A DNA stretch of 64,000 nucleotides, taken from assembly GCA_034189655.1 (NCBI GenBank), contig JAXHUE010000002.1, positions 32,207 to 96,206 of the forward strand. Reading direction: 5' to 3'. This DNA comes from Chloroflexota bacterium. Its GTDB lineage: Bacteria; Chloroflexota; Dehalococcoidia; E44-bin15. Every line of letters starts with the position of its first letter. Within the stretch, counting starts at the first letter, position 1. The notes beneath the pieces are model-generated. The model worked only from the letters and a program-made list of their open reading frames with translations. It was not told the origin of the DNA and ran no database searches. The position numbers and the translations under genes were made by a program. This document shows, piece by piece, positions 7,474 through 61,110 of this stretch.

Positions 7474-8427
7474 CTACTGCTCCTCCTCCTGCAGCGCCTC
7501 GACCAGGGCCTCGATCTCGTCCACGGTGGCCGTGAGCGAGGCGAGGGCACACCGGCCCCCGCTCGATATCTCCACCCTCTCCAGGAGAGGCCCGGCCTCG
7601 GGTGGGAAGTCCTCGCTTAGAGGGATGAAGGTCTTGGCGGTGAGGAGCAGGGCGGCGAACGTGTTGGCCAGGGCAGAGGAGGTGAAGCACACCTTGACCT
7701 CTATGGTGACGTCCGGCCCCACCTTGTTGAGGCTGGCGCCCACCGCCTCCACGCTCTCCATCGTCTCTTCGTCAATGGGGATATCGTCGCCGGACACCTC
7801 GTCGATCGCCTGTGGCGGTATCTCTGCCGCCACCTTGACCCACACGTCGCCGAACGCAGTGTAGGTGTCGGCCACCGGGCCGCTTATCGGGGCCGCGTAG
7901 CCGACGGCGACATCGATGCCGTCGCGCACCGCCTCGTAGGTGCCGGCGATCACCATGGTGCTGCTCAAGAAGCAGAGGGCGCTCTCCCCGGTGGAGTCGG
8001 TGTATATCTGGTACCCCTGGTATTGGCCCGGGATCAGCTCCTCTCCGCTCTCCTGCTCGATGGCGTCGAGGAGTGCCCCCTGGTCGAACTGGCCTTCCAG
8101 GATGAAGGCCACGTAGTCCTCGACCTCACTGTCGGCGAACAGCACCATCTCGGTGAAGTCCCTGGGGTCGATGCCTGTCTCCGCCGTTACCTGTGCCAGC
8201 GCCTCGTCCACCGTCTGCGGCATGCCCGGGTCCTTCTCCGCCTGGTCGTAGGCCTCTATCAGGTCGGGGTCGGTGAGGATATCGTCTATCTGGATGCAGG
8301 CGATGGTGTTGGCCCGCTGCGGCAGGGGGTCGGTCACCGGCTCTGGAGCAGGGGGTGTGCACCCGGCCCCTACCACGGCGATGACCAGGGCGAGCGCGAT
8401 AGTGGCTGATACCGCCCTCTTCATCAT
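7474..8427 (-). CDS. Secreted/lipoprotein-like acidic protein of unknown function
   Basis: Signal peptide MMKRAVSATIALALVIAVVGAGC (lipobox-like GAGC), then a highly acidic soluble domain. Start placed at the ATG preceded by GGAGGTG. Confidence 0.6.
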   Translation of the reverse strand: MMKRAVSATIALALVIAVVGAGCTPPAPEPVTDPLPQRANTIACIQIDDILTDPDLIEAYDQAEKDPGMPQTVDEALAQVTAETGIDPRDFTEMVLFADSEVEDYVAFILEGQFDQGALLDAIEQESGEELIPGQYQGYQIYTDSTGESALCFLSSTMVIAGTYEAVRDGIDVAVGYAAPISGPVADTYTAFGDVWVKVAAEIPPQAIDEVSGDDIPIDEETMESVEAVGASLNKVGPDVTIEVKVCFTSSALANTFAALLLTAKTFIPLSEDFPPEAGPLLERVEISSGGRCALASLTATVDEIEALVEALQEEEQ

Positions 8428-8475
8428 GACGCACCTCCACACTAGTGGAGAATGATACCACCTCTTGCCTCATAA

Positions 8476-8521: not shown

Positions 8522-10372
8522 ATGACAGAACTAGACCGCATACTACCCCGCGTGACCAGACCCGCCCGCTACACCGGCGGCGAGTGGAACAGCATCATCA
8601 AAGACTGGGAGACCACGGAGGTGAAGGTGGCCCTGTGCTACCCCGACGTGTACGAGATAGGCATGTCCAACCTGGGGCTGTCCGTGCTGTACGACCTGGT
8701 GAACAGGGAGCCCCATGCCCTCGCCGAGCGCGTGTTCGCCCCCTGGGTGGACATGGAGGCCGAGCTGCGGCAGGCCTCTGTGCCCCTGTTCAGCCTGGAG
8801 TCGCGACGCCCCATAGCCGACTTCGATATCATCGGCTTCTCCCTGGGCTATGAGCTCACCTATACCAACGTGCTCACGGTGCTCGATCTCTCCGGGATAC
8901 CGCTGTTCGCCGCCGAGCGGGACCGCTCTCATCCCCTGGTCATCGCCGGGGGGAGCTGTGCCCTAAACCCCGAGCCCATGGCGGAGTTCGTGGACATCTT
9001 CTGCCTCGGCGATGGCGAGGAGGTGCTCCTTGAGCTCATCGATGCCTACAGGCGGTGGCGCTCGGCGGGTGCGGGGCAGCGCGATGAGCTGCTGCGGGGG
9101 CTTGCCGCCATCCGCGGCGTCTATGTGCCCAGCCTCTACCGCACAGACCACGGCGGCGATGACACGCCCTGTACCGTCAGGCCGGCGGCGGACTGGGTGC
9201 CCGCGGTGGTGGAGCGGCGCATCGTGGAGGAGCTCACCCCCACCGTGACCAGGCCCATCGTCCCCTTCGTTGAGACGGTGCACGACCGTGCCGCCATCGA
9301 GATACAGAGGGGCTGCACCCGGGGCTGCCGCTTCTGCCAGGCGGGCACCATCTACCGTCCCCTGCGCGAGCGCCCCCTCGAAGAGGTGATGCAGGCCGCG
9401 GACGAGCTCCTGCACAGTAGCGGCTACAACGAGCTCTCCCTCGTCTCCTTAAGCACCAGCGACTACAGCGAGATCGATACCCTGGTGGGCAGGCTCACCG
9501 AGCGCTACCGGGATGACTGCGTGAAGCTCTCTCTGCCCAGCCTGCACCTGGGCAGCTTCTCGACGAGGCTGATGGACTCCTTCGCCGATGGCAAGAAAGG
9601 GGGCCTCACCTTTGCCCCGGAGGCGGGGAGTGAGAGGCTGCGCTGTGCCGTAAACAAGGTCGTGCCGGAGGAGGAGCTTCTAAAGACCCTCGACATGGCC
9701 CAGGAGCGCGGCTGGGGCAGTGTCAAGCTGTACTTCATGCTGGGCCTCCCCACGGAGACCGAGGGCGACGTGGAGGACATAGTGCGGCTGGTGCGCACCA
9801 TCCACCGCTCGCGGCGGAGGCAGGGGGGCAGGCCGCTGCGGGTGAAGGTGAGCGCCTCTCCCTTCGTGCCCAAGGCGCACACCCCCTTCCAGTGGGTGGC
9901 CCAGGATACGGAGGAGGTGCTCGGGGCAAAGGTCGCCGTCGTGAAGGCCGGGCTGAGGGGGGTGGGGGTGCACCTGTCGTGGCAGGACGCGAGGATGAGC
10001 CTGCTGGAGGGCGTGCTGGCGCGGGGCGACCGACGTCTCTCGCAGGTCATCTACCGGGCGTGGCAGATGGGCTCCCGCTTCGAGGCGTGGAGCGAGCACT
10101 TCGACTACGACCGGTGGCTCCGTGCCTTCGCCGAGTGCGGCCTGGATCCCTCATTCTACGCCCACCGCGAGCGGCCGCTCGACGAGGCGTTGCCCTGGGG
10201 CCACATCGACGTCGGCGTGAGCACGAGTCACTTGAAGAGGGAGTTCTTGAACACAAAAAACGGTGCAGTGACCGAGGACTGCCGCTACGGCCACTGCACC
10301 GCGTGTGGTCTTCAGCGCTGGCACGGAGGGTGCCAGCGGCTCTATCAGAACTCTTCCTCCTCCTCGTCGTAG
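8522..10372 (+). CDS. B12-binding-domain radical SAM protein (TIGR03960-like)
   Basis: N-terminal [23 protein letters not shown], radical SAM cysteine motif CTRGCRFC, about 616 aa. C-terminal tail NSSSSSS arises from a convergent overlap with the next gene. Confidence 0.8.
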
Positions 10373-12816
10373 TACTCAGCCGGCTGCTGCGGCTGTCGCG
10401 GCCCTGCCGGGCGGGTGAGGAGCACGATGAGCAGGATGAGGAGGGCGGCCCCCACTACCCCGATGATAACCCAGTACCACCACACCCACTCGAAGCCACC
10501 GGCTGCCTCTGACGCGAACACCGCCCAGCTACTGAGCTGATTGGTGGTGGCGCACACCGTCCCCGCCGAGGTGCTGACCGTCGAGGGCACTATCTCCCAC
10601 GACGAGGTGCTGGTGTTGTACCTTGCCAGCGTGAGCTTGGTGGCATCGCCGCCGGCGGCATTGACGTCGGCGGAGGTGTACCTCACGCAGATGGTGACAT
10701 CAGCACCCAGCGTCCCTGTGGCCGGCGAGGTGGTGATGGAGAAGTAGCTGTTGCCCACCTTGTAGCCCGTAGGGGCCACCGGTGTCGACGTTGAAGAGAT
10801 GGTCACCGTGGTGCTCTGGGTGAAGGCACCCGAGGGTATGGTCAAGGTGACCCTGCTGTCGCTGGTGGTCACTGTTCCGCCCGTCGTCCCCACGGTACCT
10901 GAGCCCTGGAAGGGCGGCGTCGTGGGCGTCGCTGTCGGCGAAGGGGTAGGCGACGGTGTCGGCGAAGGGGTAGGCGACGGTGTCGGCGATGCCGTCGGCG
11001 TTGGCGAAGGAGTGGTCGTCGGCGTCGGCGTCGGCGTGGGCGTCGCTACCGGTGTCACCGTGGGCGTCACCGTCGGGGTCACTGTCGGCACCGTGGTAGG
11101 TGTCGGTGTCGGTGTCGGCGTCAGCGGGAGCGTGAGGTTCACCTTGAACTCGAAGTCCTTCTCCGCGGTGGCCTCCTCGTTGCTCCCCTTGTCGAAGGAG
11201 GAAACGGTGATGCCGTAGAACTGGCCGTTTATAAACGAGGGCAGTGCCGGCGTGGTGGAGGTGGTCACCTTCCAGTCTTCTGAGAGCTCGTTGAAGGTGC
11301 CGTCGGTGGCGGTGGCGAAGATCCAGTCCCACCACGCTGTGCCAATGTTCCCCCACTCGTCAGTGCCCCAGCCGGCGCCGTTCCACACCGGGTCGACCCC
11401 GGTATCGAAGCCATCTGCGCCCAGGTCGTGCCATATGCGCACGATGACGGCGTCTATCTCACCGGAGGCGTCCCCGGCCACGCCCTGTATGCTGGTCAGG
11501 CTGTTGTACACTATGCTGGGGATGGCGTTTATGCTGGTGTCGGGCACCGTGTCATCGTAGGTGAAGGACTCGGTGTTGGAGAGCTCAGGCGTGTTCACGC
11601 CGTCGTCGGACCTCACCTGCACCTGGTAGGTATCGCCGTCCACCCAGGTGGGAAAGCCGTCTTTCATGTCACCGGGGTCACAGGTCCAGTCCTGCTGGTC
11701 GTCTCCCCACAAAGTACCAAGGGTGCAGATGGGGGCGTTGGCCCAGTCCAGGTCGCCCTCCCAGTTGTTGAGGTCAAGGTCCCAGTCATCGCCGTCCCAG
11801 TACATGTCGTTGGTCTGGTCGTATATCCTGATGCTGACGGTTGCCACCAGCTCACCGGTGCCTGGCCTGGAGGTGCCGCTGAACTGGTTTATGTAGGCGT
11901 AGTTGGGGCCGATGTACTCGGGGAGGGGGTCTACGTAGGCATCGGCCGTGGTGAGCTGCTTCCTGTAGGTGAAGGTCTTAACCTCATCGACGAAGTCCCT
12001 GTTGTCCGCCCCATCGGCGGTCTGGGCGTCAATGGAGTACATGTAGCCGTTGTACCAGTCGGGCAGGGGCGGGGTGGTGTTGGTGGCTATGCGCCACGAC
12101 GTGGTGCCCGCCGTCTTGATCCACACCTCGTCGGCCTGCCAGAAGCTCCCGTTCCAGCACAGGTCGTCACCGGCATCAAAGATGCCATCGGTTCCTCCAG
12201 CAGGTGAGTCCCACCATATCATGGTCCGCACCTGGTTGATGGTGCCTGGGGAGTTGTCGGCAGCGGTACCCTCGACCTCGGTGAGGGAGTAGATGGTGTC
12301 GGCGAAGGTGGTGGTGAAGCTCACGTCCGGCAGCTCATCGTCTAAGGTGAAGGTGCCGGAGGACGGGCTGTTGTCCACGTAGCCGTCATCGTCCACCGCC
12401 CTGGCGTACACCGTGTAGCCCTTGCCGTTGGTCAGGTCTGTCTGCAGCATCCCTGCACCGGTGGTGAAGTCCCAGTCCCACTGGTTGTCTCCCCAGTTGG
12501 GGCCGGGGGCTATATCGTTCCACAGGTCGGGGTCATTCACCCAGGCGGTGCCGCCATCGTCCCAGCGGTAGCCGTCGTGGTTGCGCACGATCTGTACCTG
12601 GACAAAGTCGATGGTGCGCGGCGCCTCGCAGATGGACGTGCCCGAGATCATGGGAACGTCGTTGGTGAAGGCGGGCAGTGGGTCCATGTAGGTGTTCGGC
12701 GGTGTCACCGCCTCTGCCGGCCCGGAGCGGGCCAATGGCAGCGCCACGGCCACCAGTGCGAATAGCATGACTACTGCAATCGTGACGCGCCACCAGGAAC
12801 CAGACATACTGTTCAT
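10345..12816 (-). CDS. Cell-surface protein: signal peptide, 4 W/D-rich ~130-aa repeats, Pro/Thr linker, C-terminal beta domain, TM anchor and acidic cytoplasmic tail ([10 protein letters not shown])
   Basis: 823 aa. N-terminal hydrophobic signal ([19 protein letters not shown]). Four repeats sharing [IV]R[IM][WY].D..W..G..W motifs. About 75-aa (PT/PS)n linker. C-terminal hydrophobic helix [24 protein letters not shown], then a charged tail. RBS AAAGGAGAGGAAAG before the ATG. Confidence 0.8.
10905..11135. repeat. Low-complexity tandem DNA repeats encoding the Pro/Thr/Ser linker of the surface protein
   Basis: 24-nt unit GTCGGCGAAGGGGTAGGCGACGGT repeated in tandem, plus (GTCGGC)n and (GGTGTC)n runs on the plus strand. 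Codes (SPTP)n/(TPTV)n on the minus strand. Confidence 0.7.
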
Positions 12817-23171: not shown

Positions 23172-23329
23172 GTGCCCGGCTACAGGGCCATCGCAGGGTT
23201 ATGATATTATAGCGCACACCCCTCTTCTGGTCTACCCCGAACCGGCGATGAGACTTTTGTCCTTTGACAGCCCCCCCTCCGTATGATAGAGTGTATGGCA
23301 GTGGAGCTACAACGACGTGGAGGAGAACG

Positions 23330-23548
23330 ATGAGAGACGAGGTAGAGGCCGTCCTGGCTGAGATAAGACCCAGCCTGGCCGCCGACGGCGGCGGGGTGGA
23401 GCTGGTGGAGGTGAACGACGGGGTGGTCTCGGTGCGGCTCACTGGAGCGTGTAGCGGGTGCCCTATGAGGCAGATGACTCTCTCTGGGGGCATCGAGCGC
23501 ATACTGAAGGAGAGGCTGCCTGAGGTCACGGAAGTGGTTGCCGTGTAG
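23330..23548 (+). CDS. NifU-like (Nfu) Fe-S cluster assembly domain protein
   Basis: GGGVELVEV...VRLTGACSGCPM CxxC motif of the Nfu/NifU C-terminal domain. Start at MRDEVEAV after RBS GGAGGAGAA. Confidence 0.75.
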   Translation: MRDEVEAVLAEIRPSLAADGGGVELVEVNDGVVSVRLTGACSGCPMRQMTLSGGIERILKERLPEVTEVVAV

Positions 23549-23634: not shown

Positions 23635-23668
23635 AAGGGGGACTCATGTGAGTGCCCCCTTTCTCTAT
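23635..23668 (+). terminator. Intrinsic terminator after the nifU-like gene
   Basis: AAGGGGGACTCATGTGAGTGCCCCCT hairpin followed by TTCTCT. Confidence 0.5.
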
Positions 23669-23700: not shown

Positions 23701-24924
23701 CTACGCGGCCTCTCTGTCCAGCTCGAAGGCGCGGTGGAGGGCCTGCACCGCGTCGGGCACCTGGCCCTCGTTGATGATGCAGGTGACCCTGATCTCCGAC
23801 GTGGTGATGAGCTCGATGTTGATGCCGGCATCGTACAGGGCGCGGAACATCCGCGCCGCGTAGCCGGGGGTGTTCTGCATCCCCGTGCCCACGATGCTCA
23901 CCTTTCCCAGCGCGGCGTCGGCAACGCAGCCGGCGGCCCCGATGGAGCTGGCCACGGGCTCGACCACGCGCATCGCCTTCTCGATGTCTCTCCTCGATAC
24001 CGTGAAGGTGAGGTCGGTGACGCGCTCCGCGCTCGCGTTCTGGACGATGGTGTCCACGCTGATGCTCTCCTGGGCCAGCGGCTCGAATATGGCGGAGGCG
24101 ATCCCCGGTTGGTCGGGGACGCCGCGTATGGTGATCTTGGCCACATCGAGGTCGTGGGCTATCCCTCGCACCTTGTTCCGCACTTCCATATATACGCCTC
24201 CATGGATAGTGGTCCCTGGGCTCTCGCTGAAGCTGGATGCCACCAGGATGGGGATGTGGTACAGCTCCCCCAGCTCCACGGAGCGGGGGTGGAGCACCTT
24301 GGCCCCGTAGGTGGCGAGCTCCAGCATCTCCTCGTAGCCGATGTCCTTGAGCTTGCGCGCCTGGGGCACGATGTGCGGGTCTGCGGTGTAGACCCCTTCC
24401 ACGTCGGTGTATATCTGGCACACCTCTGCCCCCATCCTCGCTGCCAGTGCCACCGCCGTGGTGTCGGAGCCGCCGCGGCCCAGGGTGGTGATGTCCATCT
24501 CTCTGGTGATGCCCTGGAAGCCGGCGACGATGACGATCTTGCCGCTGTCCAGCTCCCTGTGGATGCGCTTGGCATCGATGGCGAGGATGCGCGCCTTGCT
24601 GTAGACCGAGTCGGTCTGGATGCCGGCCTGGGCGCCGCTCAAGCTGATGGCGCGGTGGCCCAGGCCTTTGAGCGCCATGGCGAGCAGGGTGCTCGACACG
24701 ATCTCTCCGGTGGACATGAGGACGTCGAGCTCCCGCTCGTCGGGCTGGTCGCTTATCTGGTTGGCGAGACGGATGAGCTCGTCGGTGGTCTTTCCCATGG
24801 CGGAGACCACCACCACTACCTGGCTGCCCTGCTCCCTGGTCGCCGCGATGCGCCGGGCAATGCTCTTGATCCTCTCGGCGTCGGCCACTGAGCTCCCGCC
24901 GTACTTCTGCACTACTATTGCCAT
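23701..24924 (-). CDS. Aspartate kinase with C-terminal ACT domains
   Basis: MAIVVQKYGGSSV...VVVSAMG kinase N-terminus and two ACT domains. Start at 24924; the track ORF has a 75-codon spurious extension. Confidence 0.9.
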   Translation of the reverse strand: MAIVVQKYGGSSVADAERIKSIARRIAATREQGSQVVVVVSAMGKTTDELIRLANQISDQPDERELDVLMSTGEIVSSTLLAMALKGLGHRAISLSGAQAGIQTDSVYSKARILAIDAKRIHRELDSGKIVIVAGFQGITREMDITTLGRGGSDTTAVALAARMGAEVCQIYTDVEGVYTADPHIVPQARKLKDIGYEEMLELATYGAKVLHPRSVELGELYHIPILVASSFSESPGTTIHGGVYMEVRNKVRGIAHDLDVAKITIRGVPDQPGIASAIFEPLAQESISVDTIVQNASAERVTDLTFTVSRRDIEKAMRVVEPVASSIGAAGCVADAALGKVSIVGTGMQNTPGYAARMFRALYDAGINIELITTSEIRVTCIINEGQVPDAVQALHRAFELDREAA

Positions 24925-24932
24925 GGCGGTGT

Positions 24933-26123
24933 CTAAAACCCTCCTATCAGCCTGCCCATCACGGTGTGCCCTTCCTCTATGAAGACAGCGGTGCCCCCCG
25001 CCTCGCTCTCGTCGAAGCCTGTTGCCCCGCTGGCGGCGACGCCGGGCCCCCAGAGCACGAAGGGGACCGGGTCGGCGCTGTGGGCCTTGGTGGCGATGGG
25101 CGTGGGGTGGTCGGGGAGGGCCACGACACGCAGGGCCCGTCCCCTCCACGGCAGGAGCCTGGCCACCATCTCGCGGTCGACGCTCTCGATGGCCGCCACC
25201 TTGTCCTCGATGGAGCCGGCGTGCCCCGCCTCGTCGGTGGCCTCCACGTGAACCACCACCAGGTCGTACTCCTCGAGGGCACCGAGGGCACCCTCCATCT
25301 GCGCCGCGTAGTCGTTGTCGAGGCTGTCGGTGACACCGGCGATGTCCAGCATGTCCATCCCGGAGAGCCGGGCCAGGCCCCCCAGGAGGTCGACCCCTGA
25401 TGTCATGGCGGCCTTCACCCCGAACCTCTCCCTGAAGGAGGGGACGGCGGCTGTCTTGCTGCTGCCCCAGAAGAGCCAGATCATGGCGGCCGGCACCTGG
25501 CCGCGGGACTGCCGCGCCGCGTTCAGCGGGTGCCCCTCCAGCACCTCCTGGGAGCGCAGCATGAGGTGGCGCAGGAGCTCGCTGCCCTCGCCCCGGGGCA
25601 GGTGCTCAGCGATGGGCTCGCCGGCGATGTCGTGGGGGGGGCTGCACGTCGCCCGCAGGGTCTCGGGGTGCCCGCGTATCTTGCAGATACTTCTGAAGCT
25701 CACACCGGGATAGAACTGCACCTCTTCGCTGGCAAGCCCCTCTTGTATGGCCTCCATCAGCACGTGGGCGTCCTCGCTCTCGATGTGGCCGGTGCTGTAG
25801 TCCCACATCCTGCCGTCGCGGACGGCGACCAGGTTGCAGCGGAATAGCGCATCGCCGTCCTCTACGGGGATGCCCATGCTCAGCGCCTCGATGGCGCTGC
25901 GGCCCTGGTAGTAGACCCTGGGGTCGTAGCCCATGATGGACATGCAGGCGCAGGCGCTCGACGGCTCCATGCCCTGGGGCACGGTGCGCACCAGGCCCAC
26001 CATGCCCTCCCTGGCCAGGCAGTCCAGGTGAGGGGTATGGGCCAACTGGAGGCAGGTCTTGCCGCCCCGCTCCGGGATGGGCCAGCCCGCGGCCCCATCG
26101 ATGATGAGCACGCAGTACTTCAT
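24933..26123 (-). CDS. Cofactor-independent phosphoglycerate mutase, archaeal ApgM-type family (candidate non-orthologous homoserine kinase)
   Basis: MKYCVLIIDGAAGWPIPE...TPHLD, alkaline-phosphatase-superfamily metal site. 8-nt gap to aspartate kinase downstream. Confidence 0.75.
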   Translation of the reverse strand: MKYCVLIIDGAAGWPIPERGGKTCLQLAHTPHLDCLAREGMVGLVRTVPQGMEPSSACACMSIMGYDPRVYYQGRSAIEALSMGIPVEDGDALFRCNLVAVRDGRMWDYSTGHIESEDAHVLMEAIQEGLASEEVQFYPGVSFRSICKIRGHPETLRATCSPPHDIAGEPIAEHLPRGEGSELLRHLMLRSQEVLEGHPLNAARQSRGQVPAAMIWLFWGSSKTAAVPSFRERFGVKAAMTSGVDLLGGLARLSGMDMLDIAGVTDSLDNDYAAQMEGALGALEEYDLVVVHVEATDEAGHAGSIEDKVAAIESVDREMVARLLPWRGRALRVVALPDHPTPIATKAHSADPVPFVLWGPGVAASGATGFDESEAGGTAVFIEEGHTVMGRLIGGF

Positions 26124-26171
26124 GATTAGACAAGTATAGCAAGTGGCGAGGGGACAATTCAAGGAGGCTCC

Positions 26172-26209: not shown

Positions 26210-26284
26210 CGGGGCGTGGCGCAGTCCGGTTAGCGCGCAGCGTTCGGGACGCTGAGGTCGGTGGTTCAAATCCACTCGCCCCGA
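26210..26284 (+). tRNA. tRNA-Pro (anticodon CGG)
   Basis: Cloverleaf by hand: acceptor CGGGGCG/CGCCCCG, D-arm GCGC-AGUCCGGUUA-GCGC, anticodon arm CAGCG-UUCGGGA-CGCUG, T-arm GGUGG-UUCAAAU-CCACU, discriminator A, no encoded CCA. Confidence 0.85.
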
Positions 26285-43207: not shown

Positions 43208-44422
43208 GTGGCAGAACAGGTGCTATCAGATGTCAAAGTGCTGGACGTCACCCAGCACATCGCTGGCCCCTACTGCACCAAGCTGCTCGCTGACTATGGG
43301 GCGGAGGTGATCAAGGTGGAGAGGCCCGGTCAGGGAGACCCGGCGCGCCGGCTGGGCCCTTTCTACGGCGATGAGCCTCACCCTGAGAAGAGCGGGCTGT
43401 TCGCCTATCTCAACACCAACAAGAAGGGCATAACACTGAACTTGGAGAGCGAGTGGGGCAAGAGGCAGTTCAAAGAGTTGGTAAAAGATGTCGATATCCT
43501 GGTAGAGAATTTCCCTCCCCGCGTGATGCCGGGTCTGGGCCTGGACTACAGCGTCCTGGAGCAGATAAATCCCAGGCTGGTCATGACCTCTATCAGCGAC
43601 TTCGGCCAGAGCGGTCCCTACCGGGACTACAAGGCATCGGAGATAATCATATACGGCATGGGCGGTGCCATGTTCTGCAACGGCCTGCCCGAGGAGGCGC
43701 CGCTCAAGAAAGGGCTCACGGTCACCCTGTTCCAGGGTGGGGTCATGGCGGTGGTGGCCACTATGATGGCGTTCCTCCTCGCCAGGGAGAGTGGCAGCGG
43801 CCAGCACGTCGATGTCTCCCTCTACGAGACCCAGATGGGCACCATAGACCGCCGCATGAGCCAGCTCATCGTGTACCAGTACAACAAGGCGGTGACCTAT
43901 CGTGCTGACCCATCGGTGAGGAGGATGTTCCCCTTCGGCATATACCCCTGCGACGACGGCCACTTCGAGCTGGCGGCGGTGGGCAACCTGTGGCCCGCCG
44001 TGGGCAGGATGATGGACATGCCGGAGCTCATCGAGGACCCGCGGTTCTCCAACATCATAGCCCAGATGACGCCGGGGCACCGCGATCAGTTCGACGAGAT
44101 ATGGTACCCCTGGATAATAGAGCGCACCAAGAAGGAGATCGTCACCAAGGGTCAGGAGGGCGGAGCCCTCTGCGGCCCGCTGGCCACCATGGAGGAGGTG
44201 GTGAACGACCCTCACTTCAACGCCCGTAACTACTTCCGCGAGATAGAGCACCCCGTGATCGGGAAGGTCACCTACCCCGGCCCACCCATTAACAGCGGCT
44301 CGCTGCCCTGGGAGATCAGGAGCGCCGCCCCACTCCTAGGCCAGTACAACGAAGAGGTCTATGGCCGGCTGGGCTACTCCAGGGAGGACCTGGTCGCCTT
44401 AAAGGGCCAGGGGCTCATCTAG
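43208..44422 (+). CDS. Family III CoA-transferase (CaiB/BaiF), subunit 1 of a tandem pair
   Basis: 404 aa. N-terminal VLDVTQHIAGPYCTKLLADYGAEVIKVE and conserved Asp region typical of CoA_transf_3. Confidence 0.9.
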   Translation: MAEQVLSDVKVLDVTQHIAGPYCTKLLADYGAEVIKVERPGQGDPARRLGPFYGDEPHPEKSGLFAYLNTNKKGITLNLESEWGKRQFKELVKDVDILVENFPPRVMPGLGLDYSVLEQINPRLVMTSISDFGQSGPYRDYKASEIIIYGMGGAMFCNGLPEEAPLKKGLTVTLFQGGVMAVVATMMAFLLARESGSGQHVDVSLYETQMGTIDRRMSQLIVYQYNKAVTYRADPSVRRMFPFGIYPCDDGHFELAAVGNLWPAVGRMMDMPELIEDPRFSNIIAQMTPGHRDQFDEIWYPWIIERTKKEIVTKGQEGGALCGPLATMEEVVNDPHFNARNYFREIEHPVIGKVTYPGPPINSGSLPWEIRSAAPLLGQYNEEVYGRLGYSREDLVALKGQGLI

Positions 44423-44437
44423 GTAAGGAGGAAGGAA

Positions 44438-45742
44438 ATGGCTAAACTACCGCTGGAAGGCGTGAGGGTAGTGGAGGTCTGCCCCATATGGGCGGGCCCG
44501 TTCGCCTGCATGCTTTTAGCCGACTGGGGGGCCGAGGTCATCCGCGTGGAGTCCAGGTACCACTTCCCGGTGTATACCCGCGGCGTGCTCGCCCGTCCCC
44601 CGATACAGCTCGCAGAGCAGACACCGTCCGGCTATGCCGCCTACTGCCTCGAGGGGTACGACCCTCAAAAGGCGTTGAACCAGTTCGTGCTCTTCAATGC
44701 CCACGCCCGCAACAAGCTGGGGATGACCGTTGACTTGAGGCGGCCCGAGGGCAAGGACATATTCAAGAGGCTGGTCAAGGTGAGTGACATAGTCATAGAG
44801 AGCCAGTCCCCGCGGGTGATGGAGGAGCTGGAGCTCACCTACGACGCGCTCAAGGAGGTGAACCCCAGTCTCATCATGGTCTCGCTGCCCGCCTTCGGGC
44901 AGACCGGGCCCTACAAGTACTACCGGGCGCTGGGGGCCCACCAGGAGGGGTTCGTGGGCCATACCTACCTGCGGGGGTATGCCGACCGCGACCTCAGCAA
45001 CAACGTCACCCTGTACCAGACCGACGAGACCGGCGGGGCCACCTGCGCCTTCGCCGCCCTCATGGCCCTGCACAAGAGGCGGCGCACCGGCGAGGGCATG
45101 TACGTGGACATGAGCCAGTCCGAGGCCACCATCTCCATCCTGGCACAGGCGGTGATGGACTACACCATGAACGGCCGCGTCACGGAGCGGATGGGCAACC
45201 GCGACTACCACGGGGCCATCCAGGGCTGCTACCGCTGCTGGGGCCGGGACGACTGGGTCTGCATCACCATAAACAGCGAAGAGGAGTGGGATGGCTTCGT
45301 GCGCGCCCTGGGCGAGCCCCAGTGGGCCGCGGACGATAAGTTCTCCGACCACGTGCTGCGCCTGAAGAACCACGACGAGCTCGACCGCCACATCGAGGCG
45401 TGGACCCGCCAGCACGAAAAGTACGAGGTGATGCACCTGCTCCAGGCGGAGGGTGTGCCCGCGGGACCGGTGCTGGACGAGCGGGATGCCTACACCGACC
45501 CCCACATGAGGGAGCGGGGTTTCTTCCAGGAGCTCACCCAGGCCGACTGCGGCACCCACCTCTACCCGGGGCTGCCCTGGCGCATGAACAAGACCCCCAA
45601 CGAGGTCAAGAGGCCCCCGGTGCGCTTCGGGGAGCACAACGAGTACGTGTACAAGCAGGTCATCGGGGTGTCTGACGAAGAGTACCAGTTCCTGGAGAAG
45701 GAGGGCCACATCGGCACACACTACATCCCGGAGATGTTCTAG
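44438..45742 (+). CDS. Family III CoA-transferase (CaiB/BaiF), subunit 2 of a tandem pair
   Basis: 434 aa. VVEVCPIWAGPFACMLLADWGAEVIRVE. 15-nt spacer with RBS AAGGAGGAAGG after the previous gene. Confidence 0.9.
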   Translation: MAKLPLEGVRVVEVCPIWAGPFACMLLADWGAEVIRVESRYHFPVYTRGVLARPPIQLAEQTPSGYAAYCLEGYDPQKALNQFVLFNAHARNKLGMTVDLRRPEGKDIFKRLVKVSDIVIESQSPRVMEELELTYDALKEVNPSLIMVSLPAFGQTGPYKYYRALGAHQEGFVGHTYLRGYADRDLSNNVTLYQTDETGGATCAFAALMALHKRRRTGEGMYVDMSQSEATISILAQAVMDYTMNGRVTERMGNRDYHGAIQGCYRCWGRDDWVCITINSEEEWDGFVRALGEPQWAADDKFSDHVLRLKNHDELDRHIEAWTRQHEKYEVMHLLQAEGVPAGPVLDERDAYTDPHMRERGFFQELTQADCGTHLYPGLPWRMNKTPNEVKRPPVRFGEHNEYVYKQVIGVSDEEYQFLEKEGHIGTHYIPEMF

Positions 45743-47505: not shown

Positions 47506-47621
47506 GGTGCCCCCTGCTCTTCGTCCAGCCTGCGGCGGGTATTGACGTGGGTGGTGGCAGGGGATAAGATTAGCTACAGTATGCTCGAACGTTGCCCGCA
47601 GCAATTACGTACGTGCCCGCG

Positions 47622-50600
47622 ATGAGGTACTATCTTGGCATTGACGTCGGCTCGGTCGGCGCCAAGCTGGCCCTGGTCGACGAGGGATACTCCATAGTGA
47701 GGCTCGACGGCGAGAGGATAACCTCCAGCCCCACCGCTGCCGTCGCCTCGCTTATCTCCAGGCTGGGCCGCGATGTCGACCTCGGTGCAGTCGAGGCCGC
47801 CGGCTGCTCCGGCTCCGGGAGGGGAGTGATACCCGCGGACATGGGCTGGGCGGGGTACAGCAGCTCGCTCGCCGTCGCCTCCGGCCTCCTCCACCTCCAT
47901 CCCCAGGCCAGGACCGTCATCCAGATAGGCGGGCAGAGCTCCCTGGTGATAACGCTGGAGGACGGGCTCAAGAAGCCGTGGAAGGTGGCCTCGAACCCCC
48001 TCTGTGCCGCCGGCACCGGCAGGTTCCTGGAGCAGCAGGCCTATCGCCTGGACATCAGCATGGAGGACTTCTCCCGCCTGGCACAGGAGTACAAGGGCCA
48101 GGCGCCGCGGATAGCGGCCCGCTGCAGCGTGTTCGCCAAGACCGACCTCATCCATCTCCAGCAGAAGGGTGTGCCACTGGGGGCCATGCTCTGTGGCCTG
48201 TGCGACAGCATCGCCCGCGGCGTGGCCTCCTTGACCAGGGGCCCCCTGGAGGAGCCGATATATTTCGTAGGTGGGGTCGCCGCCAACGGCGCCATCGTGC
48301 AGGCCCTGGAGGAGGTGCTCTCGGCGAGGGGCGGCCACCGGGTGCAGGTGACCGTTCCCCGGGACTGCCGCCACGTAGAGGCCCTGGGCGCCGCCCTGCT
48401 GGCGCGGGGCTCGGGGAGGCGCTCCACCGTGGCCGCACTGCCCAGGTTGAGCGCCGGGCAGCGCTACTGGGAGCTGCCCCCGCTTGAGAGGCAGGACGGC
48501 CGGGAGGAGTGGCACCGGCCCGATCTATCGCCGCCGTTGGAGGGGTACCTGGGCGTCGATGTCGGCTCCACCAGCACTAAGGCCGTGGTCCTGGACCGCT
48601 CTGGGGGCGAGGTGCTGGCCAAGTGCTACCTCATGACGCAGGGGCGGCCCGTCGATGTCGTCAAGGAGGTGTGCCGCAACCTGCTCCGCGATGTGGGTGA
48701 GGGGGCACACATACTGGGGGTGGGCGTCACCGGCTCGGGCAGGTACCTGGTGGGCAGCTTCATCGGCGCCGACGTCATCAGGAACGAGATCACGGCACAG
48801 ACCAGGGCCGCCGCAGAGATCGACCCCGATGCCGATATCATCGAGATCGGCGGCCAGGACTCCAAGCTGGTCATCAAGAGGAACGGCGTCGTCGTCGACT
48901 ACCAGATGAACAAGGCGTGTGCCGCCGGCACCGGCAGCTTCATCGACGAGCTCGCCGAGCAGCTCGGCGTGTCGGTGAAGAACGGCGACTTCGCCCGGCT
49001 GGCCTTCGATGCCCCCTACACCATAGACCTGGGGTCGCGGTGCGCCGCCTTCATGGGACAGGCCGTGGCCGCGGCGCGGCAGGAGGGGGTCTCTATAGAG
49101 GTGATAGCGGCCAGCCTGGCCAACTCCATCGCCTCGAACTACCTCTCCAAGGTGGTGGGGATGAGGAGGCTGGGGGAGAGGGTGATACTCACCGGGGCGG
49201 TGTTCTATAACGACGCCGTGGTTTCCGCATTCACCCACGCGCTCGAGGGCAGGGAGACCGTCGTGCCCCGGCACAAGGAGGTGAGCGGTGCCATCGGTGC
49301 CGCCCTCCTCGCCAGGGAGGAGATGGTGGGGGGCGGCTCCCGGTTCAAGGGGTTCCGCGAGATAGTCGAGAGCGACTATACGCTGAAGACGTTTACCTGC
49401 AAGCGGTGCGAGAACAACTGCACCATAAGCCGGATGCAGATGCCCAACGAGCCGGCGACATACTACGGGAGCAGGTGCGACCGCTACGACGCCCGCTTCG
49501 ACCAGAAGAAGGTGGAGACCGCCTTTGACGAGCGGGAGAGGCTGCTCTTCGCCGGCGTGAGGGAGGCGACGGGCACCGGGCCCACCGTGGGCATCCCCAG
49601 GGCGCTCATCATATATGACTACGCCCCGCTCCTCATCGGCTTCTTGAGCGAGCTGGGGGCCAGGCCCGTCCTCTCGGGGCGGACCAACAAGCAGGTCATG
49701 GAGCAGGCCGTCGAGCTCAGCTACCCCGATAGCTGCTTCCCCGTGAAGCTGCTGCACGGGCACGTGGCCACCCTCGAAGAGGTCGACTACATCATGCACC
49801 CCTGCGCCATCAGGCTGGGCAGGAAGGAGGGGGATGAGAACCAGAAGTACTCCTGCCCGCTGGTGCAGGCGGCCCCCTTCATCGTGCGCCAGGCATTTGA
49901 CCTGGGGAAGAGGCTGCTGGTGCCTATCATCGACCTGAGCCGCGGCGACGACGATACCATAGAGAGCCTGGCCGACTGTGCCGTCGAGATGGGGTACCGC
50001 CGCCGAGAGGGCCGCCGGGCGGCCATCGCCGCCATGAGGCGACAGCGGGAGTTCGAGGCCAGCCTGGAAGAGCGGGGCAAGGCCCTCCTGGAGGAGCTCC
50101 ACCGCGGCGACAGGCTGGGCGTGGTGTTCCTGGCCCGCTCCTACATGTCGCAGGACTCAGGGGCCAACCTGGGCATCGCCGAGAAGCTGGCCCAGCTCGG
50201 CGTGGTGCCGATACCGCTCGACTTCCTCCCCCTGGCCCAGGTGGATGTCGGCGAGTACTCCGACCGCCCCTACTGGTACTACGAGGGCAAACACATCGCC
50301 GGTGCCGCCCTGGTCGCCCAGGACCCCCAGCTCTACGGGCTGGTGCTCACCAACTTCGGCTGCGGCCCCAACTCCTTCGTGCTCAACATCGTCGAGGACA
50401 TCATGGGGGGCAAGCCCCTGGGCCAGCTCGAGATAGACGAGGACGCCGCGGAGGCCGGCATCGTCACCCGCCTCGAGGCCTTCGTCGATACCATAAAGGG
50501 ATTTGCCTCCTCGGGCAGGTCGGAGCACGTCAGGGCGTGGGACCAGGGTGCCTATCGCTCGGCGCCCACGCTGGTGAACGCGAAGAAGCTGCTCTTGATA

Positions 50601-51770
50601 CCGCGGATGGCCCCCCACGCCGAGGTGCTGGGCGCGGCCATGGAGGCGTTCGGGGTGAGGGCCATGGTCATGCCCGAGTCCAGCGAGCAGTCCCTGCTCT
50701 ACAGCAACAAGGTCACCTCGGGGAGGGAGTGCCTGCCCTACCGCGTCACCCTGGGCGACTTCATCAGGTTCTTCAACGAGAATGGCGCAGACGGCATAGA
50801 CAGGGATGAGGTCGAGGGCTTCATGGCCAGCGCCTTCGGGCCGTGCCGCTTCGGCAAGTACGCCGTGGAGCAGAGGAGGGCCCTCGCCGAGATGGGGTAC
50901 AGCCTGCCCATGCGCACCACGGTATCCAACAATGCCTATCGGGACCTGGGCCTGGGCCCCGCCTTCGAGCGGCTGGCGTGGCGGGGGATCGTCGCCGTAG
51001 ACTACCTGGAGCGGCTCCTGTGGGGCACACGCCCCTACGAGCGGGTGCCGGGCCGTGCCGACGAGCTCTTCGGCGGCTACATGGCCAGGGTCGTTGGGTG
51101 TGTGCGCCGGCGGGAGGACATGGGCCCTGTCCTTAAGGAGGCCGCCAGGGAGTTCTGCGCGCTCAAGGACCCTGCGCTGCCCAGGAGGCCGCTGGTGGGA
51201 ATAAACGGCGAGATATTCCTGCGCGCCAACAAGTTCAGCAATAACGACCTGGTGGGGGAGTGCGAGCGTGCCGGCCTGGAGGTGGTGGTCTCCTCCATGG
51301 GGGAGTGGCTGCGCTACATCCAGCACCGCAACCTGGAGGACGGCTTACAAGACCACAAGGTGAAGAAGGTGGTCACAAGCTACATCAGGAACCTGATACT
51401 GGAGCGCGACGAGCGCTCTGTAGCCGTACACGTCGCGGGCTCCGTGGACGGCGAGGAGCCGTCCATCCACGAGATACTGTCACAGTGCAGCCGCTACCTC
51501 TCCCCGCGGTGCGGCAGCGAGGCAGTGCTCAGCATAGGGGTCGGCGTCGAGTGGATGGAGAGAGCGGACTTCGCCGGCGTCATATCGGTGATGCCGCACG
51601 GGTGCATGCCTGGCGGCATCGTAGCCGCCATGTCCGAGCGCCTGAGCGCCGCCTACCGCAAGCCGTGGATCACCCTCACCTACGACGGGTTCATGGAGAG
51701 CACCAACCCGGAGAGGGTCCACAACTTCGCTGAGGTGATACGGTTCTGCAGGGACGGGGCCTCTCTCTAG
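47622..51770 (+). CDS. Giant fused protein: two BadF/BadG/BcrA/BcrD (HgdC-like activase) ATPase domains plus C-terminal DUF2229/dehydratase-component-like domain
   Basis: About 1382 aa. Domain 1 YYLGIDVGSVGAKLALV...CAAGTGRF. Domain 2 YLGVDVGSTSTKAVVLD...CAAGTGSF (actin-fold ATPase motifs, duplicated). Cys cluster CKRCENNC...C, then an approximately 780-aa Cys-containing C-terminal region. Promoter TTGACG-17-TAAGAT at about 47538. Confidence 0.85.
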   Translation: MRYYLGIDVGSVGAKLALVDEGYSIVRLDGERITSSPTAAVASLISRLGRDVDLGAVEAAGCSGSGRGVIPADMGWAGYSSSLAVASGLLHLHPQARTVIQIGGQSSLVITLEDGLKKPWKVASNPLCAAGTGRFLEQQAYRLDISMEDFSRLAQEYKGQAPRIAARCSVFAKTDLIHLQQKGVPLGAMLCGLCDSIARGVASLTRGPLEEPIYFVGGVAANGAIVQALEEVLSARGGHRVQVTVPRDCRHVEALGAALLARGSGRRSTVAALPRLSAGQRYWELPPLERQDGREEWHRPDLSPPLEGYLGVDVGSTSTKAVVLDRSGGEVLAKCYLMTQGRPVDVVKEVCRNLLRDVGEGAHILGVGVTGSGRYLVGSFIGADVIRNEITAQTRAAAEIDPDADIIEIGGQDSKLVIKRNGVVVDYQMNKACAAGTGSFIDELAEQLGVSVKNGDFARLAFDAPYTIDLGSRCAAFMGQAVAAARQEGVSIEVIAASLANSIASNYLSKVVGMRRLGERVILTGAVFYNDAVVSAFTHALEGRETVVPRHKEVSGAIGAALLAREEMVGGGSRFKGFREIVESDYTLKTFTCKRCENNCTISRMQMPNEPATYYGSRCDRYDARFDQKKVETAFDERERLLFAGVREATGTGPTVGIPRALIIYDYAPLLIGFLSELGARPVLSGRTNKQVMEQAVELSYPDSCFPVKLLHGHVATLEEVDYIMHPCAIRLGRKEGDENQKYSCPLVQAAPFIVRQAFDLGKRLLVPIIDLSRGDDDTIESLADCAVEMGYRRREGRRAAIAAMRRQREFEASLEERGKALLEELHRGDRLGVVFLARSYMSQDSGANLGIAEKLAQLGVVPIPLDFLPLAQVDVGEYSDRPYWYYEGKHIAGAALVAQDPQLYGLVLTNFGCGPNSFVLNIVEDIMGGKPLGQLEIDEDAAEAGIVTRLEAFVDTIKGFASSGRSEHVRAWDQGAYRSAPTLVNAKKLLLIPRMAPHAEVLGAAMEAFGVRAMVMPESSEQSLLYSNKVTSGRECLPYRVTLGDFIRFFNENGADGIDRDEVEGFMASAFGPCRFGKYAVEQRRALAEMGYSLPMRTTVSNNAYRDLGLGPAFERLAWRGIVAVDYLERLLWGTRPYERVPGRADELFGGYMARVVGCVRRREDMGPVLKEAAREFCALKDPALPRRPLVGINGEIFLRANKFSNNDLVGECERAGLEVVVSSMGEWLRYIQHRNLEDGLQDHKVKKVVTSYIRNLILERDERSVAVHVAGSVDGEEPSIHEILSQCSRYLSPRCGSEAVLSIGVGVEWMERADFAGVISVMPHGCMPGGIVAAMSERLSAAYRKPWITLTYDGFMESTNPERVHNFAEVIRFCRDGASL

Positions 51771-51780
51771 CGCCGCGCGC

Positions 51781-53220
51781 CTACGTGTCCACGCGAACGC
51801 AGTTCCGGCCCTCCTCCTTGGCCCGGTAGAGGGCCTCGTCGGCGGTCTTGATGAGCTCGGTCTCGTTTCCGGTGTCCTCTCTGAGCGTGGACACGCCCAG
51901 GCTCACGGTGACCTGTACGGTGTTGCCTTCGCAGGGGAACGGGTGGCCCTCCACGATCTCGCGCAGCCTCTCGGCGATGTTGACTGCCTCGTCTGAGTCG
52001 GTGCCGGGCAGGAGTATGGCGAACTCCTCGCCGCCGTACCTGGCCACCGTGTCCTCTCTGCGCACGTAGTCCATCAGGACCTTCGACAGCTCCGCGAGCA
52101 CGGCATCTCCTTGAAGGTGACCGTAGGTATCGTTTATCCTCTTGAAGCGGTCGATGTCCACCATGATGCAGGAGAGGGGGCTGCTGTGTCGCCGGGCCCG
52201 CGAGAACTCTTCCTCGATGCGGGCATAGAAGTAGCGGTGGTTGAAGGCCCCGGTGAGCCCGTCGGTGATGGCCGACCTCCGTTCCAGTGCGTAGAGACGG
52301 GCATTGTCCAGGATGGAAGGAGTCCTGCTGACGAAGATCTCAAGCGTACCCTGGTCGTCGCTGCCCAGGGGGCTGCCACCGCCCTTGTCGATGGCGATGA
52401 TGCCGAGCATCCTGCCCTTGGTCTCCAGGGGCACTATCTCCAGGTGGCCATGCTCACCGCCCTGGACATCGGGGTGGAAGGTCTCGTCGAGCCCGATGAC
52501 CCTCACCGACAGGTTATCGGTGTCGACATCGATGTTGCGCCGGCGCAGCTCCTGGAGCAGGCTGGAGACGAAGGCAGAGGCCGCCACCTTTTCGGTGGAG
52601 CCGTGGAGCGTCAGGGTATCGGTGTGGATGACGAGGAGGCCTGCCATCTCGAAATCGAGGACGCGGCCCATGAGGCTGAGTATGGCCTCGGCGAGGGCGT
52701 TGTCGTCCTCGATACGTGCCACCTCGTCGAGGTCGTTGCGTATCGTCGCCTCCTTCAGCTTCTTGTCGAGGAGGGCACTCACCTTGGTCACCACCGCGGT
52801 GTCGTCGCCCCCGGCCTTCACGTCGACGTAGCGGGACTGCGGTGTTCCCGCGTTTCTGTCCAGGAGGGCCCTTATCTTGTCCATCAGCTCGCGGTGGTCG
52901 AAGGGCTTGGTGAGGTAATCGTCGGCGCCGGTCTTGGCCCCCCAGTACTGGTCGCCCTTGCCGGCGAGCGCGGTGAGCATAAGTATCGGTATGTGGGCCG
53001 TGCGCTCGTCGTTCTTTATCAGCCGGCATGCCTGGTAGCCGTCGAGGCCGGGCATTATCACATCCATGATGATGAGGTCTGGCACATGGTCAAAGGTCTG
53101 GTGTACTGCCTGGATGCCGTCGAAGGCGGTGATGACGTCGTAGCCGCTGGCCTCCAGCCTGCGCTGGATCAGCCTCACGTTCACCTCGCTGTCGTCGACG
53201 ACCAGTATCTTATCTGGCAT
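51781..53220 (-). CDS. Response regulator: REC domain, middle (GAF-like) domain and GGDEF diguanylate cyclase domain
   Basis: ILVVDDSEVN...DVIMPGLDG phospho-acceptor region, RYGGEEF active-site motif. 479 aa. Confidence 0.9.
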   Translation of the reverse strand: MPDKILVVDDSEVNVRLIQRRLEASGYDVITAFDGIQAVHQTFDHVPDLIIMDVIMPGLDGYQACRLIKNDERTAHIPILMLTALAGKGDQYWGAKTGADDYLTKPFDHRELMDKIRALLDRNAGTPQSRYVDVKAGGDDTAVVTKVSALLDKKLKEATIRNDLDEVARIEDDNALAEAILSLMGRVLDFEMAGLLVIHTDTLTLHGSTEKVAASAFVSSLLQELRRRNIDVDTDNLSVRVIGLDETFHPDVQGGEHGHLEIVPLETKGRMLGIIAIDKGGGSPLGSDDQGTLEIFVSRTPSILDNARLYALERRSAITDGLTGAFNHRYFYARIEEEFSRARRHSSPLSCIMVDIDRFKRINDTYGHLQGDAVLAELSKVLMDYVRREDTVARYGGEEFAILLPGTDSDEAVNIAERLREIVEGHPFPCEGNTVQVTVSLGVSTLREDTGNETELIKTADEALYRAKEEGRNCVRVDT

Positions 53221-53340
53221 ATGCTCTCCCCCTCGTCACTCTTGACCTGATGGGTCCATTTTACTTGACAGAACGATGACAATATTATACCATGCCGCTG
53301 TAGAATAATAACACAGGCGTCGTAAAAACCCCAAGAGACA

Positions 53341-53430
53341 CGAAAAAGGCAAACCCTGGGAAATCAGGGGACGCAAAGCTGCGAGTCTACGGCGAAAAAG
53401 GTGCTATGACGGTCGGGCTGCCGAAACTAA
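53341..53430 (+). promoter_or_regulatory. Candidate c-di-GMP-I (GEMM) riboswitch aptamer in the 5' leader of the hybrid kinase gene
   Basis: AAGGCAAACC-CUGG-GAAA-UCAG-GGGACGCAAAGCU matches the Vc2 aptamer core GGGCAAACC-AUUC-GAAA-GAGU-GGGACGCAAAGCC with identical spacing (complementary 4-bp stems around a GAAA tetraloop). The 3' half is a CGGCG...UGCCG-closed helix containing CUAUGA (tetraloop-receptor-like). I could not fold P1 by eye. Confidence 0.6.
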
Positions 53431-59869: not shown

Positions 59870-61099
59870 TCATTCCAGCATATGCTCCAGTATGTAGCGG
59901 TCGATGTCCTCCTCTGGTATCCCCAGCAGGTCTCTCAGTATCTCATCGTTGTGCTCGCCGAGCATGGGTGCAGACTTGTGGGTACTGCCCGGCGTGCGCG
60001 ATAGCTTTATGGTGACGCTGTCGTAGGTGGTGCGGCCGGCCTCAGCGTGGTCGAGGCGGACGTAGTGCTCCCTGGCCTTGATGTGGGGGTCATGGACCAG
60101 CAGGTCTTGGGAGGTCTGCACCACGCCAGCGGCGACACCCCCCATCTGCATCAGCATCATCACCTCCTCTGCCGTCCTCTCCGCGGTCCACTCTGCCACC
60201 AGCCGGTCCAGCTCCTCCTCGTTGGCCTTGCGGCCCAGGTGGGTGGCGAACCGCTCTTCCCTGGTCCAGGATGGGTTGCCGATGACGTTGCAGAAGGCCT
60301 GCCACTCCCCGTCGCTTGCGACGGCGATGGCGCACCAGCGGTCGTCTCCCTTGCAGGGGTAGGTGGAGTGGGGGGCGGCGTGGGGCACGCGGTTGCCCTG
60401 GCGGGTCTGCACCCTCCCGTTTACGGTGTAGTCCAGGACGGCGCTGTCCAGCGTGGCCACGGTGGACTCGTACTGGGACACCTCGATGAGCTGTCCCTTG
60501 CCCGTCTTGCGCCGGTGGCGCAGCGCCGAGACCATGGCCAGTACGGTGTGGTACGGGTTGGGGGCATAGTCCGGGTAGTTCACACCGGTGCCGATGGGGA
60601 TGCGGTCGGGGTAGCCTGAGAGATAGGTGAACCCGGTGAGCGACTGGAGCGCCACCCCGAAGCCCACGTAGTCGCGGTGCGGCCCCCACAGCCCCCACAT
60701 CGGCATCCTGACCATGATGATATCGGGCTTTACCTTCGCCACCTCTTCATAGGAGAGTCCCCAGTCCTCCATCACGTGGGGGACGAAGTTCTCGATGACG
60801 ATGTCGCTCACCTTGATGAGCCGCCTGGCTACCTCCCGCGCCTCGGCGAAGTTCATGTTCAAGGCGATGCCCTTCTTCCCGCTGTTCAAGTTGTTGGCCC
60901 AGCCGCCCACGTTGACCCCGGCCTTATCGGGCACGGTGGGCGCGGCCAGCCGCAGCGCATCGATGTGGGCAACGGACTCTATCTTGATCACCTCGGCGCC
61001 GAACTCGGCGAGGACGCGGGTGGGGATGGTGCCCGCCGCGTACCAGGTGAAGTCACATACCCTGATCCCCTCGAAGGGAAGTCTTGTCTTCCGCTCCAT
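59870..61099 (-). CDS. Family III CoA-transferase (CaiB/BaiF), subunit 2 of second tandem pair
   Basis: IRVCDFTWYAAGTIPTRVLAEFGAEVIKIE. Start at MERKTRL (ATG 61099); the track ORF has a 43-codon extension. Confidence 0.85.
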   Translation of the reverse strand: MERKTRLPFEGIRVCDFTWYAAGTIPTRVLAEFGAEVIKIESVAHIDALRLAAPTVPDKAGVNVGGWANNLNSGKKGIALNMNFAEAREVARRLIKVSDIVIENFVPHVMEDWGLSYEEVAKVKPDIIMVRMPMWGLWGPHRDYVGFGVALQSLTGFTYLSGYPDRIPIGTGVNYPDYAPNPYHTVLAMVSALRHRRKTGKGQLIEVSQYESTVATLDSAVLDYTVNGRVQTRQGNRVPHAAPHSTYPCKGDDRWCAIAVASDGEWQAFCNVIGNPSWTREERFATHLGRKANEEELDRLVAEWTAERTAEEVMMLMQMGGVAAGVVQTSQDLLVHDPHIKAREHYVRLDHAEAGRTTYDSVTIKLSRTPGSTHKSAPMLGEHNDEILRDLLGIPEEDIDRYILEHMLE

Positions 61100-61110
61100 G
61101 ACGACCTCCT

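Follow-up and report, generated by a model that had tools for sequence, protein, structure and literature searches.

Results and discussion

The homK-aspartate kinase gene pair

The 64-kb stretch investigated here (part of contig JAXHUE010000002.1 from the Chloroflexota bacterium assembly GCA_034189655.1, in the following called the window) carries on its minus strand two adjacent genes: homK, which codes for an ApgM-type protein predicted to be a homoserine phosphotransferase (ThrB2/TIGR02535), and a gene of the lysC type for a monofunctional aspartate kinase (AK). The homK gene extends over positions 24933–26123 and codes for 396 amino acids (aa); it was assigned by Pfam, NCBIfam and residue mapping. 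An ATG at 26123 as start and a TAG at 24935–24933 as stop were read from the sequence. The list of open reading frames (ORFs) also contains a longer form of 409 aa beginning with a TTG at 26162, which is unlikely: alignments with homologs begin at the first residue encoded from the ATG, and the ATG was therefore taken as the start. The AK gene (23701–24924, 407 aa) runs from an ATG at 24924 to a stop at 23701. Pfam finds AA_kinase, ACT_9, ACT_7 and ACT in its product, and the NCBIfam profiles NF005155 (581.2 bits, cut-off 346) and TIGR00656 (428.9 bits, cut-off 402.25) both score above their cut-offs. With an AA_kinase domain, two ACT domains and a sufficient TIGR00656 score, this protein has the characteristics of a monofunctional aspartate kinase.

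The junction of the two genes (24925–24944, minus strand) was likewise read from the sequence. A Shine-Dalgarno-like GGAGG at 24944–24940 lies within the last codons of homK, 15 nt ahead of the AK ATG, and the homK stop codon is separated from the AK start codon by a spacer of 8 nt (acaccgcc, 24932–24925). An earlier sequence-only reading of this DNA had placed the pair at 23701–26123, with the ApgM-like gene ending 8 nt before AK on the same strand, and these positions are exact. The same reading had called the two genes translationally coupled. The close spacing and the GGAGG in the last homK codons agree with this, but stop and start codon do not overlap, so that coupling is only plausible, whereas co-transcription of homK and AK appears likely from their close spacing.

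Upstream of homK a tRNA-Pro(CGG) gene is located on the opposite strand (26210–26284), and downstream a NifU-like gene (23264–23545) is convergent with AK. homK and AK hence form a two-gene unit, enclosed by the divergent tRNA gene and the convergent NifU-like gene. A site that is promoter-like by consensus match only, TTGAAT-18 nt-TATACT with an upstream TG, is found at 26133–26162 on the minus strand; the search for such sites returned four, compared to 0.5 expected in shuffled sequences. Its -10 element ends 9 nt ahead of the homK ATG, and the leader would therefore be very short or absent. At the other end, 40–66 nt past the AK stop, the space in which AK and the convergent NifU-like gene meet holds a stable GC-rich hairpin (23635–23661, minus strand). 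The 91-nt stretch containing it has a minimum free energy of -33.6 kcal/mol (z = -3.3), and 0 of 200 shuffled sequences folded as well. This hairpin, which has no U-tract, is a candidate transcription stop. An Rfam scan of the locus found no riboswitch, T-box or leader RNA upstream of homK or AK.

Family membership and active-site residues

The homK product contains the Pfam domains PhosphMutase (PF10143) and Metalloenzyme (PF01676). It passes the curated cut-off of the model TIGR02535, "proposed homoserine kinase" (493.8 bits, cut-off 446.3), and the alignment extends from end to end (residues 1–393 against 1–396 of the 397 model positions). The subfamily-level model TIGR00306 for apgM gives a lower score of 457.1 bits (cut-off 320). 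Among proteins of solved structure, the archaeal cofactor-independent phosphoglycerate mutases 3kd8, 3idd and 2zkt come nearest, and because the homology to these structures reaches an E value of about 1e-54 the fold of the homK product may be regarded as fixed.

For residue mapping, the protein was aligned with 2zkt, 3kd8 and 270 homologs derived from phmmer searches (120 close homologs and 150 diverse representatives of clusters at 50% identity). The predicted nucleophile, Ser56, aligns with the nucleophilic serine of 2zkt and 3kd8; every one of the 120 close homologs has a serine at this position, as have 130 of the 150 diverse representatives. The metal ligands D9, D297, H301, D338, H339 and H348 are identical in both solved mutases and conserved in the homologs. 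At the specificity site, HVE294ATD297EAGH301 in the window protein stands against HFK302PTD305AAGH309 in 2zkt and NIKATDVAGH in 3kd8. Glu294 replaces Lys302 of 2zkt and the equivalent lysine of 3kd8, and in the full alignment this is the only column in which the window protein has an acidic residue and both solved mutases have a basic one. Mutases contact their substrate through a lysine ahead of the metal motif D-x-x-x-H (in 2zkt, K302), and this residue is a glutamate here. This glutamate is shared by all 120 close homologs and by 133 out of 150 diverse representatives, only two of which have a lysine. For these counts the phmmer-derived sets alone are independent; the loci L006–L085 were left aside, since the pattern used in scanning for them demanded EA[PT]DE.

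For Bacteroides thetaiotaomicron BT2402, a TIGR02535 member, a preprint gives a comparable set of residues: S56 as nucleophile and E299 as specificity residue, with Glu in HomK, as the family was renamed there, and Lys in mutases (GapMind 2026 preprint, 10.1101/2024.10.14.618325). The window protein shares the numbering of BT2402 at D9, R38 and S56. As a side observation, Appendix 3 of this preprint lists the metal ligands of BT2402 as D274, H278, H325 and D346, H347, an order which disagrees with the alignments made here (D297, H301, D338, H339 and H348 in the window protein); the D346 and H347 given for BT2402 match the numbering of 2zkt.

A feature of its own clade is seen around the nucleophile. 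Residues 55–58 of the window protein read Ser-Ser-Ala-Cys, compared to Gly-Ser-Asp-Val elsewhere. Homologs of the Dehalococcoidia type have S-S-A-C/V at this place (120 of 120 close homologs; loci L006–L021), whereas other phyla and the solved mutases show G/A-S-D-V/I/T. The nearest locus from the Dehalococcoidaceae, L014, also has S-S-A-C. It is conceivable, though unlikely, that S-S-A-C marks a changed phosphate donor or phosphoryl-transfer chemistry, or that the enzyme also serves the cell as its sole phosphoglycerate mutase. In that case, biochemistry on the Dehalococcoidia-type HomK clade might help to identify the phosphate donor of HomK.

Genomic context across phyla

Conservation of neighbouring genes was studied at 80 homK loci from named genomes, which belong to Dehalococcoidia, Omnitrophota, Planctomycetota, Nitrospirota, Desulfobacterota, Bacillota, Actinomycetota and methanogenic archaea. 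All ORFs within 4 kb were clustered without prior assumptions. The most enriched neighbour families are all on the same strand as homK, and their identities were confirmed by NCBIfam: aspartate kinase in 40 out of 80 loci (NF005155), homoserine dehydrogenase in 23 (NF004976), citramalate synthase in 21 (TIGR00977) and threonine synthase in 19 (TIGR00260). At least 46 of the 80 loci have AK, hom or thrC within 4 kb, which is a lower bound as many contigs are short. The order hom-thrC-homK-AK-cimA recurs in Omnitrophota, Planctomycetota, Nitrospirota, Actinomycetes and Deltaproteobacteria. Since an AK gene on the same strand directly follows homK at half of the loci and in many phyla, the adjacency of homK and AK is not due to chance. 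The pair in the window is that part of a widespread cluster which Dehalococcoidia have kept, and their relatives have homK-AK only.

The best match in a named genome is 63% identical (metagenome-assembled genomes of Dehalococcoidia), and a copy with 99% identity is present only on a 7-kb metagenome scaffold in ENA. A Dehalococcoidia relative with 65% identity has the same arrangement MazG-homK-AK-(NifU)-TPR-GyrA-MarC.

Some further observations were made on these loci. A larger cluster, gpsA-hom-thrC-homK-AK-cimA-valS, recurs across phyla (loci L022, L027, L029, L036–L038, L041, L047, L048, L079 and others) and combines threonine synthesis with citramalate synthase, which opens the threonine-independent route to isoleucine. 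Between homK and AK, five loci of Omnitrophota or Planctomycetia have a gene for a membrane protein of about 530–545 aa that is CstA-like by eye. ORFs of 510–548 aa downstream of homK were considered as a clue to the phosphate donor and turned out to be uninformative: judged by eye only, they would be a CstA-like polytopic membrane protein in Omnitrophota and Planctomycetia and, in one Dehalococcoidia locus, an AMP-binding ligase. Finally, eight cluster representatives outside the window (P0132, P0145, P0149, P0159, P0161, P0170, P0206 and P0207), of about 1,000–1,100 aa, have a HomK-like N-terminal module of the Glu type. Their C-terminal parts, which share homology among themselves, consist by eye of an acidic linker, one hydrophobic helix of transmembrane type and a beta-rich stretch of about 500 aa. 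As these parts contain no Pfam domain and have this make-up, the fusions were rejected as a Rosetta-stone link to threonine synthesis.

A probable homoserine phosphotransferase in place of ThrB

We consider the homK product to be HomK (ThrB2/TIGR02535), an ApgM-fold phosphotransferase that would replace ThrB in threonine synthesis, with a probability of roughly 0.85. The TIGR02535 score, Glu294, the threonine cluster across phyla and published complementation all speak for the sequence-only reading, in which a candidate non-orthologous homoserine kinase from the cofactor-independent phosphoglycerate mutase family had been suggested. That reading had also pointed to proposals of such proteins as ThrB replacements, and these correspond to the curated family TIGR02535, which by now has experimental support. 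TIGRFAM curators proposed the family to replace ThrB, and mutants of BT2402 require threonine (GapMind 2020, PMC7311316). Under the name ThrB2 the family is reported from 300 gut genomes, 278 of them without thrB (Ashniev et al. 2022, PMC9026213). Moreover, an E. coli thrB::kan mutant can be complemented either with BT2402 or with a diverged homolog from Dehalococcoides mccartyi, DET_RS08350 (10.1101/2024.10.14.618325). Physiological role and complementation of thrB are thus taken from the literature on family members, and the activity of the window protein is predicted by analogy to them.

Within the 64-kb window, which is the extent covered by these searches, about 50 candidate genes were scanned with Pfam; neither thrB nor thrC was among them, nor was a gene for homoserine dehydrogenase or for another phosphoglycerate mutase. 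In a six-frame tblastn search of the window with E. coli ThrA, ThrB and ThrC, only the AK domain of ThrA produced a match (23713–24912). The best match of ThrB had an E value of 0.53, and no window protein contains a GHMP kinase domain. The sequence-only reading was hence right that no thrB is visible in this stretch.

HomK would take over the role of ThrB, a kinase of the GHMP family, in making the O-phospho-L-homoserine on which threonine synthase acts. By homology with the mutases a ping-pong mechanism is likely, in which a phosphorylated donor other than ATP would give rise to a phospho-Ser56 intermediate. The reaction would take place at a two-metal centre composed of D9, D338 and H339 together with D297, H301 and H348, from where the phosphoryl group would pass from Ser56 to the hydroxyl group of homoserine. 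Glu294 would hold the amino group of homoserine, at the place where true mutases use a lysine for their anionic substrate. Through co-transcription, homK would be linked to AK, with which the aspartate pathway begins. As for the donor, it has been argued that it is not ATP and probably not phosphoglycerate, and phosphoserine has been speculated upon (10.1101/2024.10.14.618325); the locus studied here contributes nothing further on this point.

Several points weigh against the assignment as HomK. With 497.3 bits (cut-off 426), the score of the equivalog model NF003242, which is named "cofactor-independent phosphoglycerate mutase", slightly exceeds that of TIGR02535, and all named close relatives in public records are labelled phosphoglycerate mutase. 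The aspartate following the catalytic serine is replaced by alanine throughout the clade of the window (120 of 120 close homologs), and it is only probable that the validated D. mccartyi enzyme carries S-S-A-C too, because L014 shares this motif. The equivalence of E294 to E299 of BT2402 is itself deduced from the 2zkt alignment and from spacing: E294 is 44 residues away from the D338-H339 pair, compared to 47 in BT2402 and 46 in the family consensus. Furthermore, within Dehalococcoidia the pair travels together with unrelated housekeeping genes (MazG, TPR, GyrA), so that the linkage of homK and AK there could be inherited synteny.

The NF003242 score and the names of the relatives would be expected for a genuine glycolytic mutase of the ApgM type that is located beside AK by happenstance, as would the score above the TIGR00306 cut-off and the fold and catalytic machinery held in common with 2zkt and 3kd8. 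However, the models TIGR00306 and NF003242 do not separate HomK from mutases. It is because NF003242 outscores TIGR02535 that the NCBI pipelines name this clade mutase, and the names of the relatives are legacy annotations based on homology. A glycolytic function is very improbable in view of Glu294 at the position of the substrate-binding lysine, the TIGR02535 score exceeding that of TIGR00306, the linkage in many phyla with hom, thrC and AK rather than with glycolytic genes, and the complementation of thrB by family members.

Two further possibilities keep the chemistry and change the role, and nothing specific supports either. The protein might be bifunctional, serving as the phosphoglycerate mutase of the cell and as a homoserine phosphotransferase with 2- or 3-phosphoglycerate as donor. 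The phospho-serine enzyme chemistry is common to the mutases, phosphoglycerate is by homology the most obvious candidate donor, and the window holds no second mutase; but Glu294 should disfavour an anionic substrate, and D. mccartyi, reported to lack thrB, encodes a separate mutase (10.1101/2024.10.14.618325). The same preprint finds a known glycerate kinase in only 53% of HomK genomes, compared to 67% of ThrB genomes, which argues against phosphoglycerate as the donor. Such a double role seems slightly less probable than a purely glycolytic one. Least probable of all is another hydroxy-amino acid as acceptor, for instance with L-threonine O-3-phosphate as a product for cobalamin synthesis, as has been speculated for homologs linked to cobD. 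Glu-bearing homologs adjoining cobD are indeed described (10.1101/2024.10.14.618325), and corrinoid adenosyltransferase genes are present in the window at 496–1774. These cobD-linked homologs, however, score as TIGR00306 and not as TIGR02535, which the window protein passes; its neighbour is AK, no cobD is adjacent, and more than 23 kb lie between homK and the corrinoid genes.

With HomK as the preferred assignment, the gene pair represents a normal case of the HomK/ThrB2 family, which is already described and was tested elsewhere, and is not new. The value of the result lies mainly in annotation, as the label phosphoglycerate mutase on this clade is replaced with HomK and the homoserine kinase gap in Dehalococcoidia-like Chloroflexota is closed. 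With the mutase label, metabolic reconstructions of these bacteria would wrongly predict threonine auxotrophy and an additional glycolytic enzyme.

Other elements of the window

Elsewhere in the window, Rfam identified a full-length match to the c-di-GMP-I-GGC riboswitch variant RF03167 at 53339–53426 on the plus strand (69.1 bits, gathering score 59). It is located about 75 nt upstream of a gene for a hybrid histidine kinase of 1980 aa with nine PAS domains (53501–59440) and is divergent from a gene for a REC-GAF-GGDEF diguanylate cyclase (51784–53220, minus strand). Two ORFs on the minus strand, 7477–8442 (322 aa) and 10348–12816 (823 aa), gave no match to Pfam (E <= 0.001) and have a coding frame rich in G and C at third codon positions. 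There are also four paralogous genes for family III CoA-transferases and one for a BcrAD/BadFG-DUF2229 "CoA enzyme activase" of 1392 aa (43208–45739, 59873–62397, 47592–51767). Together with genes for an enoyl-CoA hydratase and an acyl-CoA dehydrogenase they suggest an island of anaerobic acyl-CoA metabolism.

Comparison with known systems

Among the known systems, BT2402, which serves as reference for HomK, is similar to the window protein in family model, length, the domains PF10143 and PF01676, the numbering of D9, R38 and S56 and, as far as the alignment allows it to be deduced, the glutamate at the specificity site. Both proteins are encoded beside genes of the threonine pathway. The window protein is about 35–45% identical to HomK members from outside the Chloroflexota. 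It differs in its neighbourhood, which consists of a monofunctional AK only, compared to the thrA-homK-thrC operon of Bacteroides, and in its nucleophile motif, S-S-A-C in place of the G-S-D-V of HomK outside the clade. DET_RS08350 is likewise an ApgM-type protein from Dehalococcoidia-related Chloroflexota, but it is reported as TIGR00306 rather than TIGR02535, which the window protein passes.

The ApgM mutases (2zkt, 3kd8, 3idd; TIGR00306) have the fold, the serine nucleophile and the two-metal site in common with the homK product. They are set apart by Lys302, which is Glu294 here, by G-S-D instead of S-S-A, and by the context, which here is amino-acid biosynthesis and not glycolysis. The classical ThrB, a GHMP kinase, and ThrH, a phosphoserine:homoserine phosphotransferase, catalyse the same step, the formation of O-phosphohomoserine, but neither is related in sequence or fold to the window protein. 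The ThrB reaction takes its phosphate straight from ATP and involves no phospho-enzyme, whereas ThrH provides a precedent for a donor other than ATP.

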